From Candidatus Margulisiibacteriota bacterium (GTDB lineage Bacteria; Margulisbacteria; WOR-1; O2-12-FULL-45-9), in the NCBI GenBank assembly GCA_034723395.1, contig JAYEOW010000007.1, forward strand, positions 38,605-102,604: 64,000 nt of DNA, read 5' to 3'. The position numbers and the translations under genes are program-made. This document shows positions 53,732 through 62,718 of the stretch, piece by piece (the first letter of the stretch is position 1; each line of letters opens with the position of its first letter). Under the pieces are notes generated by a model. It was not told the origin of the DNA, searched no databases, and worked only from the letters and a program-made list of their open reading frames with translations.

Positions 53732-56005
53732 ATGGTCGAAATATCTGATAAGGAATATAAAGAACTAAAGGGACGCAAGCAGGCGGAGGAAAGGGTAAAA
53801 CAACTCAATCTTGTGTTGTGCTCCATACGGAAAGTAAACCAGCTAGTCATCAAGGAAAAAGATCGCGATAAAGTGATCAAGGGCGTTTGTGTCAACCTGG
53901 TCGAAACGCGCGGGTATCACAATGCCTGGATCGTCCTATTAGATGAATCCAACAGGGTTGCGGCAACCGCTGAATCAGGCTTAGGCAAGGCTTTCCTGCC
54001 CATGGCCGAGCAGTTGGAACGCGGCAAGCTGCCTGCTTGCGGGCGGAGGGCGTTGAAGGAAGCGGGCGTCATAGTTACCCCAGATCCCAGTTCATCTTGC
54101 ACAGACTGTCCTCTGGCGGCGAGTTACTATGGCCGCGCGGGAATGAGCGTCCGCCTGGAGTATGAAGGGAAGGTCTATGGCTTGTTGGCTGTCTCAACCT
54201 CCGCCAATTTTGTCGCCGACGATGAAGAACGCTCCTTGTTCCGGGAGGTTGCCGGAGACATTGCCTTCGCTTTGCGTAATATAAAATTGAATGAGGGACG
54301 CAAGCAGGCGGAAGATGCTGTAAAGGAAAGCCGACAGTTTTTATCAAATGTCTTTTTCAGTATTCAGGATGGCATCAGTGTTTTGGATAAGGAATTCAAC
54401 ATTGTGATGGTCAATGCGAAGATGGAAAAGTGGTACGCGCATGCTATGCCCCTTGTGGGCAAGAAATGTTACCAGGCCTATCAGGGCCGGAGTAAGCGCT
54501 GCGAAATTTGCCCAAGCTATGAATCTATGCGAACAGGAAAACTCGCGCGTGAGGTCGTCCCCATGCAAGGGCCCAAGGGCCGGGTCGTTGGCTGGATCGA
54601 GTTATTCGGTTTTCCGCTGATCGATGAAAAAACAGGTGAGCTGACCGGCGTGATCGAATATGTTCGCGACATCACCGAGCGCAGGAAGGTGGAGGATGAG
54701 TTGCGGCAAGTCGAGGAGAGGTACAGAACGGTTTTTGAAAATACCGGGAATGCTACACTTATCCTGGAAAAAGATCGTACGATATCGTTAGTAAACAGGG
54801 GCTTTGAGGTTTTGTCCGGATTTTCGCGGGAGGAGATTGAAGGGAAAAAGCGTTGGGAGGAATTTGTTGCTGAAGAAGACCTGGAGAAGATGAAGGAACA
54901 GCATGAGCTGAGAAGAAAAAAACCAGGATCAGCTATGAATGTGTATGAATTCAGGTTTGTTGATAGGAATGGGGTAGTTAAAGATATACTGCTTACCGTT
55001 GACATGATCCCCGGGACCATGAAGAGCGTGGCATCTCTTATGGACATCACCGGGCGCAAACGGGCGGAGGAAGCGCTAAAGAAAAGTGAAGAAAAATTCC
55101 GGATGATCAGTGAAAATACAAATGATGTAATTGGTTTAACTACCTTCAGCTTGGATCCGGTTTACACCTACCTAAGCCCCTCGGTCAAGGATGTGTTTGG
55201 TTATCAACCTGAGGAGCTGATCGGCAAATCCGCCCTTGATTATATCCATCCTGATGATAAGAAAAAGTTGCTTCCCCTGCTAAAAAAATACATAAGTATG
55301 AAGGTTAAAGGAGTTTTTGGGGCAGGCAACAAAAATATTGCTGAGATGATCGAATTTCGTTCTAAGGATAAATCAGGGAATTGGCATTGGGCGGAAAGCA
55401 GGGTAAACCTTATTGGGAAAGACTCTTTGGCGTATGTTGCGAGGGACATCACCGAGCGCAAGCGGGCGGAGGAGAAATTACAAGAGCGGATAAATGAGCT
55501 TAACTGTCTCTACAATATTTCTGTCCTTTTTGATAGGCGGAGATTGTCGGTGGATGAGATGCTTTATCAATCACTTGGGTTAATACGCTTTGCCTGGCGG
55601 CGCCCCGAGGCCGTCTGTGTCAGGATAAAACTGGACGGCAGAGAATTTAAGACCGATAACTTCCGGGAAACGGAGTGGAAGTTTTCGGTCGCTATTAAAG
55701 TGCATGGCAGTGACCTTGGCTCATTAACCGTCTGTTATCTGGGAAAAAGGTCGCGATCCGATGAGCCATTCCTTGAAGGAGAGAAAAAACTTATCCGTGT
55801 GATTGCCGAGTACCTGGGGCACGTTGTCCAGCACAGACTTACGGAGGAGGATACCTCAAACAGGAAGGAAGAGCTGGAGAAATTCTATAAGATCGCGATG
55901 GGGCGGGAGGACAGGGTACTCGAGCTGAAGAAGAAAGTTGAGGAGCTTGAGGACAGGATAATAGAATTAAAGAGAGAGCTTAAAGGGAAGCTGGGGAAAA
56001 TATGA
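53732..56005 (+). CDS. GAF plus 3xPAS sensor protein with no recognisable output domain
   Basis: Repeated DITERK/DITGRK linkers; C-terminal coiled coil [13 protein letters not shown]. Confidence 0.85.
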
Positions 56006-57876
56006 GCTATATACTTGCCCTAATATCGATGGCCGGTTTCATAATTGCCGGAGTTTGCGCGGTATTTGTCCTGACGCGCAACCCGAAAGAGCGGTTAAGC
56101 CGGATTTTCTTTGTTTTTTCGTCGGCTGTCGCCTTTTATTGTCTTTCTGATTTTTTATTAAAGATCACGGCTTTTGTATTGATGGCCAGGGTGTATTCTG
56201 CGTTCGCGCTTTTCTTCTGGCCGCTTATATTAGGTTCTTTACTGCATTTTACACTGGTGTTGGGGAAGAATAAGAAAATATTAGGCAGATGGTTGGGCTA
56301 TGCGCTGATCTATTTTCCTGTCCCGCTAATTTTTTATCTGCACGCGGTGCAAGGTGTTTTTTTCGCGGGATTTGAAATGTCTCCGCCCGCGAACATTGAG
56401 ATCCTCGGGAAATATTACTGGGTTCTGCTGGTTTATTCGAATATGTTTTTTATCGCGACGTTGTTATTTGCATGGCGGGCTTGGCGTCGCGCGCAAGAAA
56501 AAAAAGAGAAGAGCCAAAACGCGCTGGTCCTTACCGGTTTTGTGCTTGCTTATGCGATCGTCACTTTTTTTGAGCAGCTTTTACCAGCCTTTCATGGCCA
56601 CCCGATAATAATTGTCCCTTTTGCGTTATTGGTTATAGTATTATTTTTCGCTTATGCCGTAGTCAGGTATGAAATGCTCGTTGTGTCCCCAGCTACGGTG
56701 GCGCAGGATATTTTACGGACCATGCCTGAACTCCTGATAGTGGTAGATACCAAACGAAGGGTAATCCTGGTTAACCAGATAGCCATGGATGTTTTTGGTT
56801 ATTCTCATGAGGAGTTCATAAGCCTATCATGCCACGATCTCTACGTGAATAAGGGAGAGTGTGAAAAAATACATAAGGAGACTACCAAAAAAGGATATAT
56901 CAAAAATTGCCAGACCACTATTTTGGACAAAAACAGGAGGCCAGTGCCGGTAAACGCCAATATATCTATAGTCAAAGACCGGTTTGGAGGGGAGATAGGG
57001 AGGATCTTGGTTTTCCGCGATATTTCCGGGGAACAGAAGACTATAGCCGAATTGGAGAAAACCAGGAAAAGGATGCTCAGTATCCTGGAGGATACAACTG
57101 AGGCAAGGGATATGGCCAAGGAAGGTAAGGTTGAGATCGAGAAGCTTTATGAGGATTTAAAAGTTGTCGATCAGATGAAGACCGAGTTTTTGTCAATGGT
57201 TTCGCATGAACTGAGAACCCCGCTAACCCCGATAAAAGGATATTCGGCCATGCTTCTTGCCGGCGGGTTGGGAAAACTATCTTCCAGGCAAGAGCAGGTC
57301 ATCGGAGTCATAGAGAGGGAGGGCGACCATTTGTTGGAGTTGATCAACAGCATTCTGGATATAAGCCGGATAACCCGCGGGCGCACTCTTGACCTAATAA
57401 AAGAGCCGATATCGGTGAAAGCCCTGTTTGAAGACCTGGTCCTGGTCATGCGCCCTCAGACAGAAGAGAAGAATATTAATATCGAAATCGACCTGCCAAA
57501 AGATATCCCAACGATCGTCGGAGACTTGTACAAGATCAGGAGGGTGTTGACCAATCTGCTGGGGAATGCGATCAAGTTTACGCCTGAGGGGGGATCGATC
57601 AAGCTAAGCGGTGAAATAGAAGGCAAGCAGATAAGAATGTGCGTAAAGGATAACGGGATCGGGGTCGATAAGGATAAGACCGAAAAAATATTTGATAAAT
57701 TTTACCAGGTTGACAGCTCGTATACCCGCAAAGTAGGCGGGCTGGGGCTCGGTCTGGCGATCGCCCAGGATATCGTCGAAGCGCACGGAGGAAAGATTTG
57801 GGTGGAGTCGGAAGGGGTGGGAAGGGGAGCCAGGTTTTGTTTTACATTGCCTGTGGCGGAAGAAAAAAAAGCCTAA
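56002..57876 (+). CDS. 7TM-PAS sensor histidine kinase
   Basis: [26 protein letters not shown]. Confidence 0.94.
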
Positions 57877-57929
57877 CGCGGCGCCGGTCCTGGCGGACCG
57901 TAACATTTTCTGGAATGATGGGATGTAAG

Positions 57930-57956
57930 TGAAATTTACCTTCGTTTTTTGCGATA
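57930..57956 (+). promoter_or_regulatory. Putative alternative-sigma (sigma28-like) promoter TGAAAT-N16-CGATA
   Basis: TGAAAT-TTACCTTCGTTTTTTG-CGATA; same spacing as the site at 51739-51765. Confidence 0.55.
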
Positions 57957-57989
57957 ATAATCCAGTAGTTTATGATTTAAGGAGATTAA

Positions 57990-59000
57990 ATGAACGGAAT
58001 CGGTCCGATAAAAGGTAAGCCAATTGCCCGCATTCTCCCGAAACGGCCAACCCGTGCTGGAGGGTTGCGACGGGTGGGGATAAAGAGGGGGATGAGAGAG
58101 GATATTCCGCTCAGGGATTTTATTACTGAACTTGTCAGATCGTTCCAGCCGCAGGTGGAGCGGGAAGGGGCAATGTTTTTTGCGAATATAAGGGGGTTGG
58201 GAGAGGGCGATGGGATTAGGATGGTCTGTTCTGAGCTGGAGGATCTTTTACACAGTCTTATTTCGTGTGCCATAAAGGCTCTGGAAACAAAAGAGGGGAC
58301 GGGTAAGGCGATAAGCCTGGAGGTGAGGAGAAAAGGTGATTCTATAGAGATAACGTTGGAGCATAACGGTTGCGGGACCACGCTTGAGGAGCTTTCATCC
58401 CTTGGAGAAATAGTTGATAAAAACGGCGGGAAGATCAATATAGCGAACGATTTGGGGCAGGGGACCAAGCTTACCATTATCTTTCCCAGGCAGGGAGAGG
58501 CCAGGGCCAACAAAGGGGATAACGAGCTGGACGATAACCCGTTTCACCTGTTTATCCGCCATTTTATCCACGCGTGCAACAGTCCGATGACGGGTTTGAA
58601 CTACCTGCGCATGCCATCGGTGGATGGGGTGCGGCTTGCCCGACATTATTTTAGCAAAATGATCAATGATTTCAGGGCGATCGCCGACTTTATTGCCGAC
58701 GCGAGCGAGCCGGCCTTTGGGAGCCAACTGCTAAGTGAGACTTTCCTGCCGACCTCTACTATGAGCAATCGTGATGTTGTAAAGGCCTGGGGATCTGTGC
58801 CGGCCGGAGAGAGATATAAAATTGCTATTGTACTGCGGCTCTATTTTGAAAAAATTGACGATCACCTGGGAGGGATTAACCGTATTTTGAGCAGAATGAC
58901 GCTCACTCCCGGAAATATAGACGAAGTAATGGCTCTTCACGACAAAATAGTTAAGGTCAACAGGAGTATGAGCTCGGCCGAATATTATAGATCCCTATGA
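57990..59000 (+). CDS. Degenerate HATPase-domain protein with Arg-rich N-terminus
   Basis: LEHNGCG, GGKINIANDLGQGTKLTIIFP; N-box lost (ISCAIKA). Confidence 0.65.
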   Translation: MNGIGPIKGKPIARILPKRPTRAGGLRRVGIKRGMREDIPLRDFITELVRSFQPQVEREGAMFFANIRGLGEGDGIRMVCSELEDLLHSLISCAIKALETKEGTGKAISLEVRRKGDSIEITLEHNGCGTTLEELSSLGEIVDKNGGKINIANDLGQGTKLTIIFPRQGEARANKGDNELDDNPFHLFIRHFIHACNSPMTGLNYLRMPSVDGVRLARHYFSKMINDFRAIADFIADASEPAFGSQLLSETFLPTSTMSNRDVVKAWGSVPAGERYKIAIVLRLYFEKIDDHLGGINRILSRMTLTPGNIDEVMALHDKIVKVNRSMSSAEYYRSL

Positions 59001-59012
59001 CCCAAAATAGTG

Positions 59013-59041
59013 TTGACAAGTAGATGCCCACCTGCTAAAAT
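59013..59041 (+). promoter_or_regulatory. Sigma70-type promoter for extended glnA
   Basis: TTGACA-N17-TAAAAT with TG extension, 9 nt before ATG 59051. Confidence 0.75.
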
Positions 59042-59050
59042 GCTTCCACA

Positions 59051-60736
59051 ATGATCAATGAGCTCTTTTGCCCTAATCCAAATTGTCCGCTTTACCGCGT
59101 AGGCGGCGAGGATAATGTTGTAAAATTCGGTAGTTACCAGACCAAGGGTGAGGAGCGGGGGAGATATCGCTGCAACCGTTGCGGCGAAACGTTCTCTGAG
59201 CGTGCGATGACCGGATTATATGGTTTGCATGCTGATAAAAAAAAGGTCGATAAAGTAATAAAAAAAATCAAAGGAGGGGATTCACTTAGAAAAATTAGTA
59301 GAGAGATGGATATTAAACTGGATACGGTCCGCTATTGGCGCGATCGTTTTATTAATCACAATCGGCAAAAAGTCGAGAGGAGGCAAAGTAAAATGGGATT
59401 AGATTCAGCAAGTAAAGAGGTATTAGAAAGGGCAAAAAAGGAAGAGATCAAGTTTATTCAGCTGCAGTTTACCGATATTTTGGGGATGATGAAGTGTGTG
59501 ATCATCCCGCTGGCCAAGCTCCACGACGCGTTCGAGAAAGGGGTCTGGTTTGATGGTTCGTCGATCGAGGGATTTGTGAGGATCGCCGAGTCGGATATGA
59601 TCTTAAAACCCGATCCTTTGACCTACCAGGTTATTCCGTGGAAGGTTGAGGGGAGAAAATCGGCCCGCTTGATCTGTGATATCCATACGCCGGACGGAAA
59701 ACCGTTCGAAGGAGACCCGCGGTCGATCCTAAAGCGGGCCTTGGCCGAAGCAGGGAAGCTGGGCTATGAGTTTAACACCGGACCGGAGGTTGAATTCTAC
59801 CTGCTAAAGAAGGAGAACGGCAAGATCACGACCGTTCCCCACGATATCGGCGGATATTTTGATTATCCGTCAAGAGATTATGCCTCAGAGGTCCGCGAAG
59901 ATATTATTTTCGCCCTCGAAGCGATGGGGATGACCTCGGAGATGTCTCACCATGAGGTCGGACCAGGGCAACACGAGATCGATGTTAAATATTCGGACGC
60001 CCTGCGTTCGGCGGATAACACGATCACGCTGAAATACGTGATCAAATCGATCGCTTCCCAGCACGATCTCTACGCTTCCTTTATGCCCAAGCCACTATAC
60101 GGCGAAGCGGGGTCAGGAATGCATGTCCACCAATCGCTGTTTGATAAAAAGGGGAAGAATGTCTTCTATGATGCGAAGGATAAATACAAACTTTCGAAAA
60201 TTGCGCATCAATACCTGGCAGGACAGCTTTCCCACGCGAAAGCATTGACTGCGATTGTCGCGCCGACCGTAAATTCATATAAACGATTAGTCTCCGGCTA
60301 CGAAGCGCCGGTCTATATCTGCTGGGGGCAGGTTAATCGTTCAGCCTTGATCCGTATCCCGCGCTATTCGGCGGGTAGGGAGCAGTCGACCCGGATGGAA
60401 CTTCGTTGCCCTGATCCGTCTTGTAATCCATATCTGGCCTTTGCGGCGATGTTAACGGCTGGTTTAGATGGAATTAAAAAGAAGATGGAGGCGCCGGCGC
60501 CGGTAGAAGAGGATGTTTATAAATTAAATGCAGCAGAACTTAAAGCAAAGAAGATCGATATGCTTCCTTTCTCTATTAAACGTTCAATTGAGGAGCTGGA
60601 GAAGGACAAAGTGGTTAAAGATGCTTTAGGAAGTCATACTTTTGCTAACTTTTTTGAAGCGAAGACCAAGGAGTTTGACGATTACCGGATGCAGATCACT
60701 CCGTGGGAGCTTGATAAATATTTAGAAGCCTTATAA
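59051..60736 (+). CDS. glnA: Type I glutamine synthetase with N-terminal IS1/InsA-like Zn-ribbon-HTH extension; internal start at 59393
   Basis: GS: FDGSSIEGF, HHEVGPGQHE, FMPKP..GSGMH, GYEAP, NRSALIR, NPYLA. Extension: CPNPNC..RYRCNRC..TF..SLRKISR..TVRYW. Confidence 0.93.
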   Translation: MINELFCPNPNCPLYRVGGEDNVVKFGSYQTKGEERGRYRCNRCGETFSERAMTGLYGLHADKKKVDKVIKKIKGGDSLRKISREMDIKLDTVRYWRDRFINHNRQKVERRQSKMGLDSASKEVLERAKKEEIKFIQLQFTDILGMMKCVIIPLAKLHDAFEKGVWFDGSSIEGFVRIAESDMILKPDPLTYQVIPWKVEGRKSARLICDIHTPDGKPFEGDPRSILKRALAEAGKLGYEFNTGPEVEFYLLKKENGKITTVPHDIGGYFDYPSRDYASEVREDIIFALEAMGMTSEMSHHEVGPGQHEIDVKYSDALRSADNTITLKYVIKSIASQHDLYASFMPKPLYGEAGSGMHVHQSLFDKKGKNVFYDAKDKYKLSKIAHQYLAGQLSHAKALTAIVAPTVNSYKRLVSGYEAPVYICWGQVNRSALIRIPRYSAGREQSTRMELRCPDPSCNPYLAFAAMLTAGLDGIKKKMEAPAPVEEDVYKLNAAELKAKKIDMLPFSIKRSIEELEKDKVVKDALGSHTFANFFEAKTKEFDDYRMQITPWELDKYLEAL

Positions 60737-60737
60737 T

Positions 60738-60769
60738 AATTACGAATTACGAATGCCGAATTACGAATT
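60738..60769. repeat. AATTACG heptamer array
   Basis: AATTACG AATTACG AATGCCG AATTACG AATT. Confidence 0.85.
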
Positions 60770-60786
60770 GATGTTATAATTATTAT

Positions 60787-61158
60787 ATGAGGCAGGATAT
60801 AGATATACATGAAAGAGTTTTAAAGTTCGGTATTCGGATAGTGAAGTTCTGTAAGGTTCTATCCAAGAATATTGATAATAGGGCAATTGCGGATCAATTG
60901 ATCCGGTCGGGGACTTCGGTTGGCGCTAATATGCAGGAAGCCGATTCTGCTTCGTCAAAGAAGGATTTTATTAATAAAGTAACGATAGCAAAGAAAGAAA
61001 TACAAGAAACAAATTACTGGCTGAAAATAATTAAAGGTTCAGACTTGATCAATAATGAAAGGAATAAAGTGGAATTAATGGATTTACTGCGTGAAAGTGA
61101 CGAGCTAACAAGGATCATCGGTTCCATTTTGTCACGAACGAAAAGCAAACTAGGATAA
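60787..61158 (+). CDS. Four-helix-bundle protein (23S rRNA IVP/bAvd-like)
   Basis: QLIRSGTSVGANMQEA, SKKDFINK, KEIQETNYWL. Confidence 0.93.
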   Translation: MRQDIDIHERVLKFGIRIVKFCKVLSKNIDNRAIADQLIRSGTSVGANMQEADSASSKKDFINKVTIAKKEIQETNYWLKIIKGSDLINNERNKVELMDLLRESDELTRIIGSILSRTKSKLG

Positions 61159-61267
61159 ATTGCTAATTACGAATGAAGAATTACGAATTAATGTCATATT
61201 ATTTTAATATCCCGAGCGGAGTCGAGGGATACATTCATTCGTCATTAGTAATTAGGAATTCGTAATT
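61158..61267. repeat. Direct and inverted AATTACG arrays enclosing a REP hairpin
   Basis: 61158-61190 direct; 61240-61267 inverted; atcccgagcggagtcgagggat at 61209-61230. Confidence 0.85.
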
Positions 61268-61273
61268 ATGAAC

Positions 61274-61311
61274 AAAAAAGAAGCCCCCTGAGTTAAACTC
61301 AGAGGGCTTTT
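61274..61311. terminator. Probable bidirectional intrinsic terminator
   Basis: AAGCCCCCTGAGT-taa-ACTCAGAGGGCTT (one mismatch) with A and T tracts, between convergent genes. Confidence 0.8.
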
Positions 61312-61333: not shown

Positions 61334-62692
<1,359 letters not shown>

Positions 62693-62718
62693 TTACATTT
62701 TATTTAAGGCAGGGTAGT

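Follow-up and report, generated by a model that had tools for sequence, protein, structure and literature searches.

Organization of the fused glutamine synthetase gene

We analysed a 64,000-nucleotide stretch of DNA (referred to throughout as the window) from a Candidatus Margulisiibacteriota bacterium (assembly GCA_034723395.1, contig JAYEOW010000007.1, positions 38,605 to 102,604 of the forward strand), in which a gene for glutamine synthetase (GS) carries an N-terminal zinc-ribbon and helix-turn-helix (HTH) extension resembling the DNA-binding part of IS1-family transposases. A single open reading frame (ORF) on the plus strand (59051..60736; 561 amino acids) joins extension and GS without an intervening stop codon, the extension comprising 114 codons (59051-59392) and the GS part starting at ATG 59393 (Table 1). 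The zinc-ribbon is built on two CxxC-like pairs, with all four cysteines invariant or nearly so in the alignment of fusion proteins, and was weakly matched by the NCBIfam model IS1_IS1595_Zn. The GS part contains the domains Gln-synt_N (PF03951, 100 bits, amino acids 133-214) and Gln-synt_C (PF00120, 449 bits, amino acids 221-557), and its score against the TIGR00653 GlnA model (560.7 bits, cut-off 429.15) identifies it as a type I GS. The linker exists in a short form (in the window, P0004, P0005, P0007, L037 and L038) and in a form that is 11 residues longer; further inserts occur in some proteins (G004, P0010), and the length difference (alignment columns 115-150) is always in frame.

An independently assembled contig, probably from the source run, was identical to the window over 58900-59700 (0 differences, 0 gaps), and contigs from three other metagenome runs (marine) span extension and GS in frame, with a linker longer by 33 nt. 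An earlier note on this DNA, made from the letters alone, had described a zinc-ribbon-HTH domain fused in frame to GS, without a DDE domain or terminal inverted repeats and with a consensus promoter 9 nt before ATG 59051, and had asked for a check across 59340-59395. The ORF and its domain matches, the family and inverted-repeat scans, a promoter scan of 58700-61300 and the identical contig bear out this description.

Table 1. Coordinates of the features at the fused GS locus (window positions).
Feature	Position	Strand	Remarks
Candidate operator, conserved 21-nt element	58998..59018	+	overlaps -35
Sigma-70-type promoter	59013..59041	+	-35 59013-59018, 17-nt spacer, extended -10 59036-59041
Long-isoform start codon (proposed)	59051..59053	+	9 nt after -10
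Zinc-ribbon	59069..59197	+	Cys7, Cys12, Cys41, Cys44; strands amino acids 23-30, 35-41, 47-49
Three-helix HTH	59237..59350	+	helices amino acids 63-74, 79-86, 90-100; Pfam, AF2 and structural likeness
Linker	59351..59392	+	variable, predicted disordered; short form in the window, 11 residues more in most relatives
Internal Shine-Dalgarno motif AGGAGG	59378..59383	+	two Arg codons; 9 nt before ATG 59393
Internal ATG, Met115	59393..59395	+	ancestral GS start; proposed short-isoform start
Complete type I-alpha GS	59393..60736	+	447 amino acids plus stop; Pfam/NCBIfam domains

Conservation, selection and history of the fusion

A search with the extension as query, covering only proteins of GS-fusion length, returned 22 protein clusters that combine the extension (58-100% identical) with GS domains, four of them cut at one end. 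A close homologue of the extension was present in 12 of the 146 genomes of the phylum, all from one class of uncultured, Saganbacteria-like bacteria, and nine of the 146 encode uninterrupted fusion frames of 564-598 amino acids (families f1, f2, f4 and f10). The fusion is cut by a contig end in genome G012, a further one is cut by a contig start in G002, and nine further fused loci were found on metagenome contigs. The same architecture recurred in every fused relative examined, so the fusion is not a chance event.

Across seven genes (21 pairs), the median ratio of the proportions of non-synonymous to synonymous differences (pN/pS) was 0.30 for the zinc-ribbon, 0.27 for the HTH and 0.15 for GS, with median pN values of 0.25, 0.23 and 0.12, respectively, and a median pS of about 0.83, at which synonymous sites are saturated. 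By this comparative measure, the extension is under purifying selection and not a decaying remnant. The earlier note had held that its proposal would fall if relatives carried a stop codon between the domains or if the extension were unique and decaying; the uninterrupted frames in nine genomes, the 22 clusters and metagenome contigs, and a pN/pS of about 0.3 (at saturated synonymous sites) all came out on the side of the proposal. Four close stand-alone homologues (P0173, P0023, P0174 and P0024) are singletons on contigs of less than 3.2 kb with ends that resemble shifted frames, and are taken as errors or rare breaks and not as the norm. We are highly confident that the fusion is a functional gene.

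The GS orthogroup exists both with and without the extension, at 64-86% identity. In a maximum-likelihood tree built from the GS parts of 27 fused and 10 unfused sequences, with the paralogue as outgroup (omitting six other unfused orthologues, the cut sequences P0018 and P0020, and P0004, P0005, P0007 and P0019), fused and unfused sequences interleave, requiring seven changes by parsimony, at least two of which are forced by well-supported branches. Because the extensions are homologous and accompanied by the same promoter, we read this pattern as pointing to one old fusion followed by repeated loss or exchange.

Two genomes of family f13 encode a stand-alone homologue of the extension (172-192 amino acids; L067 3061-3579 and L068 3006-3584), about 50% identical to it and with a hydrophobic C-terminal part. 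These genes adjoin isocitrate dehydrogenase, a histidine kinase and a sigma-54 activator; the neighbouring kinase is 48% identical to the kinase upstream of the fusion gene in the window, adjacency to a kinase being common to both.

The extension as an IS1-transposase-type module

The Pfam models HTH_28, HTH_29 and HTH_23 matched the extension with E-values of about 1e-4, slightly under their cut-offs, and the NCBIfam IS1 transposase model (NF033558) matched it at E 4.5e-6 over model positions 6-81, with a score (26.7 bits) far under the cut-off of 100 for whole proteins, since the extension corresponds to the N-terminal part alone. A search of 1.84 billion representatives with a profile built from seven extensions gave 1487 proteins at E <= 0.001, mostly of 100-250 amino acids. 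Outside the fusion, the nearest relatives lie at the N-terminus of IS1-family transposases, in their DNA-binding part; after the module these proteins continue with what we take to be the motif opening the IS1-type transposase catalytic domain. DDE_Tnp_IS1 was weakly matched by two of the longer profile relatives, and the NCBIfam IS1 transposase model was matched by 51 of 54 sampled family members (best E 7e-21). For the fusion protein itself, the Pfam/NCBIfam scan gave no DDE_Tnp_IS1 match, the HTH being followed directly by the GS domain; no inverted repeats were found around 59013-59392, and the extension has a single match in the genome, with no second copy.

An AlphaFold2 (AF2) model of the extension, computed from a 54-row alignment (predicted local distance difference test score, pLDDT, 81.8), comprised a three-stranded zinc-ribbon and three helices, the chain being disordered from residue 105 onwards. 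Residues 60-112 resembled the HTH of resolvases, sigma region 4, LuxR-type regulators, terminases and transposases (VIA-align Z 5.5-6.9), a Z below 7 denoting the generic likeness common among small HTH folds, and the zinc-ribbon part was barely covered; a Foldseek comparison of the extension with the PDB gave no match at E <= 0.001. In IS1, the zinc-finger and HTH of InsA are required for DNA binding specific to the inverted repeats, and InsA represses a promoter that overlaps the left terminal repeat, IRL (PMC12428005). On these relationships, the extension is a domesticated zinc-ribbon and HTH DNA-binding module of the IS1-transposase type. Both halves of this statement had been put forward in the earlier note; the identity is supported by the IS1 transposase match throughout the sampled family, and the domestication by conservation, purifying selection, the single copy and the lack of a DDE domain and inverted repeats.

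The same module was also seen at the C-terminus of proteins of about 500 amino acids that start with an XRE-type HTH (P0035, P0057, P0065, P0075, P0088, P0103 and P0147), as well as in fusions with a protein-kinase domain (P0132) and with MarR domains (P0077 and P0163). As judged from these architectures, it has been recruited repeatedly outside transposons.

The GS body and its paralogue

Large conserved sequence blocks, shared with the solved GS 8oow, are invariant in the 22 fusion sequences; taken as blocks and not as individually mapped residues, they presumably hold the catalytic and metal-binding residues of GS. The closest solved structures are archaeal (methanogen) and Firmicutes GS of the I-alpha type (8oow, 8tfb, 7tfa and 4lnf; E about 1e-141 to 1e-152), which scored 460-511 bits, as against about 275 bits in two stretches for enterobacterial and mycobacterial GS, a pattern that assigns the enzyme to subtype I-alpha. 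As far as its sequence tells, the GS body is intact.

The genome (1.68 Mb in 55 contigs, 97% complete) contains two GS genes. The fused one adjoins gdhA and nrpR, the NrpR gene lying 2 kb away, and a plain paralogue, 51% identical, is part of an amtB-glnK-glnA-gltB cluster on another contig (C26, locus L012 1-4002). The fused GS is thus not the sole GS of the cell, and both paralogues are present in many relatives, often on one contig.

A leaderless-type promoter and two proposed translation starts

The promoter in Table 1 is the best promoter-like site in the scanned region; it matches the consensus at 11 of 12 positions and has an extended TG. At 9 nt from the first ATG, it is too close for a Shine-Dalgarno (SD) motif to fit in between, so that the mRNA is expected to have no leader or almost none. 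The geometry is general among relatives: in all 15 distinct fused loci with upstream DNA, 6-9 nt separate the end of the -10 from the start codon (ATG in 14 cases, GTG in one). Genome-wide, strictly the same geometry preceded 21 of the 1157 ATGs that open long ORFs, compared with 5 of 7368 internal in-frame ATGs; by this count leaderless-type genes seem to exist in this genome, and the fusion gene has their two marks, a -10 within about 10 nt of the start and no SD.

At the ancestral GS start, all 15 fused loci showed at least five of six matches to AGGAGG, 5-9 nt before the ATG, and twelve of them showed six of six. Among the other ATG triplets of the same ORFs, at least five matches preceded 21 of 454 (4.6%) and six matches only one of 454. 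Met115 is invariant in the 22 proteins, with variable flanks, and is encoded by ATG in all 15 loci; unfused orthologues begin at the same position, with ATG in five and GTG in five of the ten. The earlier idea of two translation starts thus gains comparative support, from the promoter abutting the first start as well as from the SD-like motif and the invariant ATG at the second. We regard this as good comparative evidence, not proof, that the internal start is used, and lean towards two isoforms being made.

If only the long isoform were made, every subunit would bear the module, and the SD and Met115 would be remnants of the pre-fusion glnA kept by constraint on a basic linker. The motif is indeed encoded by Lys/Arg codons and selectable as such a linker, and the unfused ancestor already had the SD and the start, so that inheritance explains their origin. 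Inheritance and linker constraint sit less well with SD nucleotides that persist in 15 of 15 loci despite saturated synonymous sites, with AGG accounting for only 19% of the Arg codons in the fusion genes, with a Met115 that is invariant among variable neighbours, and with G013 and G018, which have changed the peptide here and still keep a GGAG-type core. We give a single long isoform a minor share of the probability.

A conserved 21-nt element over the -35

Immediately upstream of the fusion gene lies a 21-nt element in which one 5-nt word occurs twice, 16 nt apart, the second copy forming the first five bases of the -35 hexamer. Its columns are almost invariant in the alignment of 13 fused loci, in lineages with saturated synonymous sites. 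The element is unique in the 1.68-Mb genome (<=3 mismatches; profile E 9e-6, next best 1.5 at C46:2342); the genome scan for weaker copies gave nothing above chance, a scan that half-sites might escape. A profile scan of 70 loci found the element at every fused locus with an upstream region, including four outside the profile (L069, L070, L008 and L040), and did not find it at the 10 unfused, the two stand-alone or the IS1-like loci. Two lineages, G013 and G143, have the -10 placed 17 nt closer, with the first repeat of the element acting as -35; that the element is kept there speaks for a discrete site and against a simple UP element. From this pattern we infer that the element is an operator and that the extension, which always travels with it, is its most economical ligand. 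Whether the extension binds its own promoter we regard as evenly balanced. As for an origin of the element from the end of an insertion sequence, no likeness was found to the upstream regions of 15 IS1-like relatives, nor in the profile scan of loci.

The extension might instead be functional without being a factor for its own promoter, acting as a tether to nucleoid, DNA or RNA or modulating higher-order assembly or activity, with the element serving NrpR, a sigma factor or an UP-like function. The element does include the -35 hexamer itself and an A-rich stretch, the NrpR gene is close by, and promoter and extension could have been co-inherited as one block. What makes this reading unlikely, in our view, is that in IS1 this domain family serves to bind DNA sequence-specifically (PMC12428005) and that the element is kept where the -10 has moved. 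NrpR in particular fits poorly as the ligand: unfused orthologues in the same glnA-gdhA-nrpR synteny do not have the element, which therefore does not go with NrpR, and an NrpR operator consensus had no match in the window (2.6 expected by chance).

A different sequence, a 17-bp AT-cored palindrome, lies over the -35 of the unfused glnA promoters in 4 of 10 genomes (L014, L015, L016 and L020) and recurs in two fused loci (L027 and L036), on the upstream side of the 21-nt element at a distance of about 10 nt; it is probably the operator of another regulator. As a regulon signal in the genome of the window this palindrome was rejected, with one 1-mismatch site compared with two per strand for a control pattern.

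Gene neighbourhood

The earlier note had placed the regulatory role of the fused GS in the glnA-gdhA-nrpR cluster. This part of the proposal found no support: the sole conserved candidate operator is at the gene's own promoter, with none elsewhere in the genome or near gdhA or nrpR, and the glnA-gdhA(-nrpR) synteny is equally present in relatives without the extension (nine of 14 fused and seven of 10 unfused loci). Being common to fused and unfused loci, the synteny predates the extension.

Three sensor-kinase-like genes (53732-59000) lead directly into the fusion gene. The first, a 757-amino-acid ORF from 53732, shares 25-27% identity with ORFs that lie close to glnA in two unfused loci; it overlaps by 4 nt the second, which encodes a 624-amino-acid membrane histidine kinase, and the third encodes a 336-amino-acid protein with only an HATPase_c domain, its stop codon falling within the conserved 21-nt element. 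Between glnA and gdhA lies a gene for a 23S-rRNA-intervening-sequence protein (PF05635; 60787-61158), flanked by 41-nt direct repeats (60738-60778 and 61158-61198) and a 39-nt inverted arm (61231-61269) and thus resembling an inserted cassette; a homologue, 75% identical, follows the fused glnA in metagenome locus L033. A 6-nt inverted repeat whose arms are 12 nt apart (62688-62711) is situated upstream of gdhA, on the minus strand, between a -10-like hexamer and an SD; it is a possible repressor site, with a sequence unrelated to the 21-nt element.

Proposed mechanism

The reading that we favour is a trigger-enzyme GS with a transposase-derived DNA-binding arm, which would autoregulate its own promoter and be made as a long and a short isoform; taken as a whole, it stands in our estimate at an even chance, and autoregulation is probable from the comparative data. 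Transcription from the strong promoter abutting the first ATG would give a leaderless or near-leaderless mRNA, on which initiation at the 5'-terminal ATG would yield the long, DNA-binding subunit, while ribosomes loading at the retained SD would start at Met115 and yield plain GS. In E. coli GS, the N-terminal helix is at the head-to-head face between dodecamers (PMC11800386), and by analogy N-terminal additions should be solvent-exposed; if the outer faces of the GS double ring likewise carry the N-termini here, an oligomer would show several DNA-binding modules. These modules would bind the 21-nt element over their own -35 and thereby repress the gene, with a binding strength set by the state of the GS body. 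Two such states come into question. Glutamine-bound GS I-alpha activates GlnR (PMC9249791; PMC11800386), and the signal here could be the glutamine-bound or feedback-inhibited form; 2-oxoglutarate drives assembly of the GS dodecamer in Methanosarcina (PMC11957540), and it could equally be 2-oxoglutarate-dependent assembly. The two-protein GS-GlnR circuit of Firmicutes would in this way have collapsed into one polypeptide, built from a part of a transposase.

A bolder version, which we put forward tentatively and consider doubtful, makes the GS dodecamer a one-component nitrogen-sensing transcription factor whose number of arms is set by leaderless versus SD-led initiation. Arm and operator would both derive from an IS1-like transposase and its promoter-overlapping end, and selfish self-repression would have been rewired to nitrogen feedback.

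Several points weigh against the trigger-enzyme reading. Because of its repeated loss on the tree, the extension is dispensable in many lineages. Its co-occurrence with the element would also follow from the inheritance of promoter and extension as one block, and the element could in truth be bound by another factor, for instance NrpR, whose gene is close by. As the element occurs once per genome, a regulon would consist of no more than this one gene, which is little for a conserved domain to do. Reasons other than initiation, such as a basic K-R-R linker motif, could account for the persistence of the internal SD and Met115, and the full-length AF2 model (pLDDT 59.6) was too poor for domain placement or coupling to be judged. 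A predicted complex of the extension with the GS body scored 0.00, which we count neither for nor against.

That the locus results from an error of assembly or a spurious frameshift, or is the decaying rest of an IS1 that reads into glnA, is extremely improbable: the four singleton stand-alone homologues on short contigs, with their shifted-frame-like C-terminal ends, would fit it, against an independent contig identical across the junction, 22 intact fusion clusters, 15 intact loci, a pN/pS of about 0.3 and the lack of a DDE domain, inverted repeats or another copy.

Comparison with known systems

GS is among the most studied regulated enzymes, and to our knowledge its known links to transcription always run via separate proteins (GlnR, TnrA, PII, NtcA and NrpR). 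A GS with a fused DNA-binding domain was not found in the literature searched, which included the accessible text of a GS review (PMC11800386) and of the Saganbacteria paper (PMC6349859) and lay outside subscription journals. If the trigger-enzyme reading is true, the fusion would be the most direct coupling yet of the catalytic state of GS to gene expression and would offer a clean natural test of feedback-inhibited or assembly-state GS as the nitrogen signal. It represents a clear case of a transposase DNA-binding domain apparently recruited into core metabolism, and may also be one in which leaderless versus SD-led initiation on one mRNA sets the ratio of isoforms.

The closest comparison is with unfused GlnA of the same class (e.g. 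in G011, G001 and G015), of which ten fetched orthologues have a GS 72-86% identical to the fused one, with the same start position, SD and glnA-gdhA-nrpR neighbourhood. Unlike the fused gene, they have neither the extension nor a promoter of the leaderless type nor the 21-nt element, and in four of the ten the 17-bp palindrome lies over the -35 instead.

With the GS-GlnR and GS-TnrA systems of Bacillus and other Firmicutes (glnRA), the fusion shares a type I-alpha GS, which in those systems is the nitrogen sensor. In Firmicutes, the gene just upstream of glnA codes for a small HTH protein, which acts as a repressor of the glnA promoter when GS has glutamine bound (PMC9249791; PMC11800386). 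GlnR and TnrA are separate proteins of the MerR type with a GS-binding C-terminal tail, whereas the DNA-binding part is here covalently fused and consists of an IS1-type zinc-ribbon and HTH; no MerR-family match was found in the fusion protein at E up to 1 in the Pfam/NCBIfam scan. The candidate site is likewise different, being a unique 21-nt element and not a GlnR/TnrA box.

PutA, BirA and NadR are trigger enzymes with a built-in DNA-binding domain. The fused GS resembles them in uniting enzyme and DNA-binding domain in one conserved polypeptide, as well as in the proposed autoregulation of its own promoter coupled to metabolic state, and differs from them in that the domain comes from a transposase and in that two isoforms are proposed from one ORF.

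With InsA and InsAB' of IS1, finally, the extension shares a homologous zinc-finger and HTH. Unlike IS1, the fusion is without a DDE domain and terminal repeats and is present in a single copy. In IS1, translational control gives two proteins a DNA-binding domain in common (PMC12428005); this control works by frameshifting, whereas alternative initiation is proposed here; and the part that the two proposed isoforms share is the enzyme, where in IS1 it is the DNA-binding domain.

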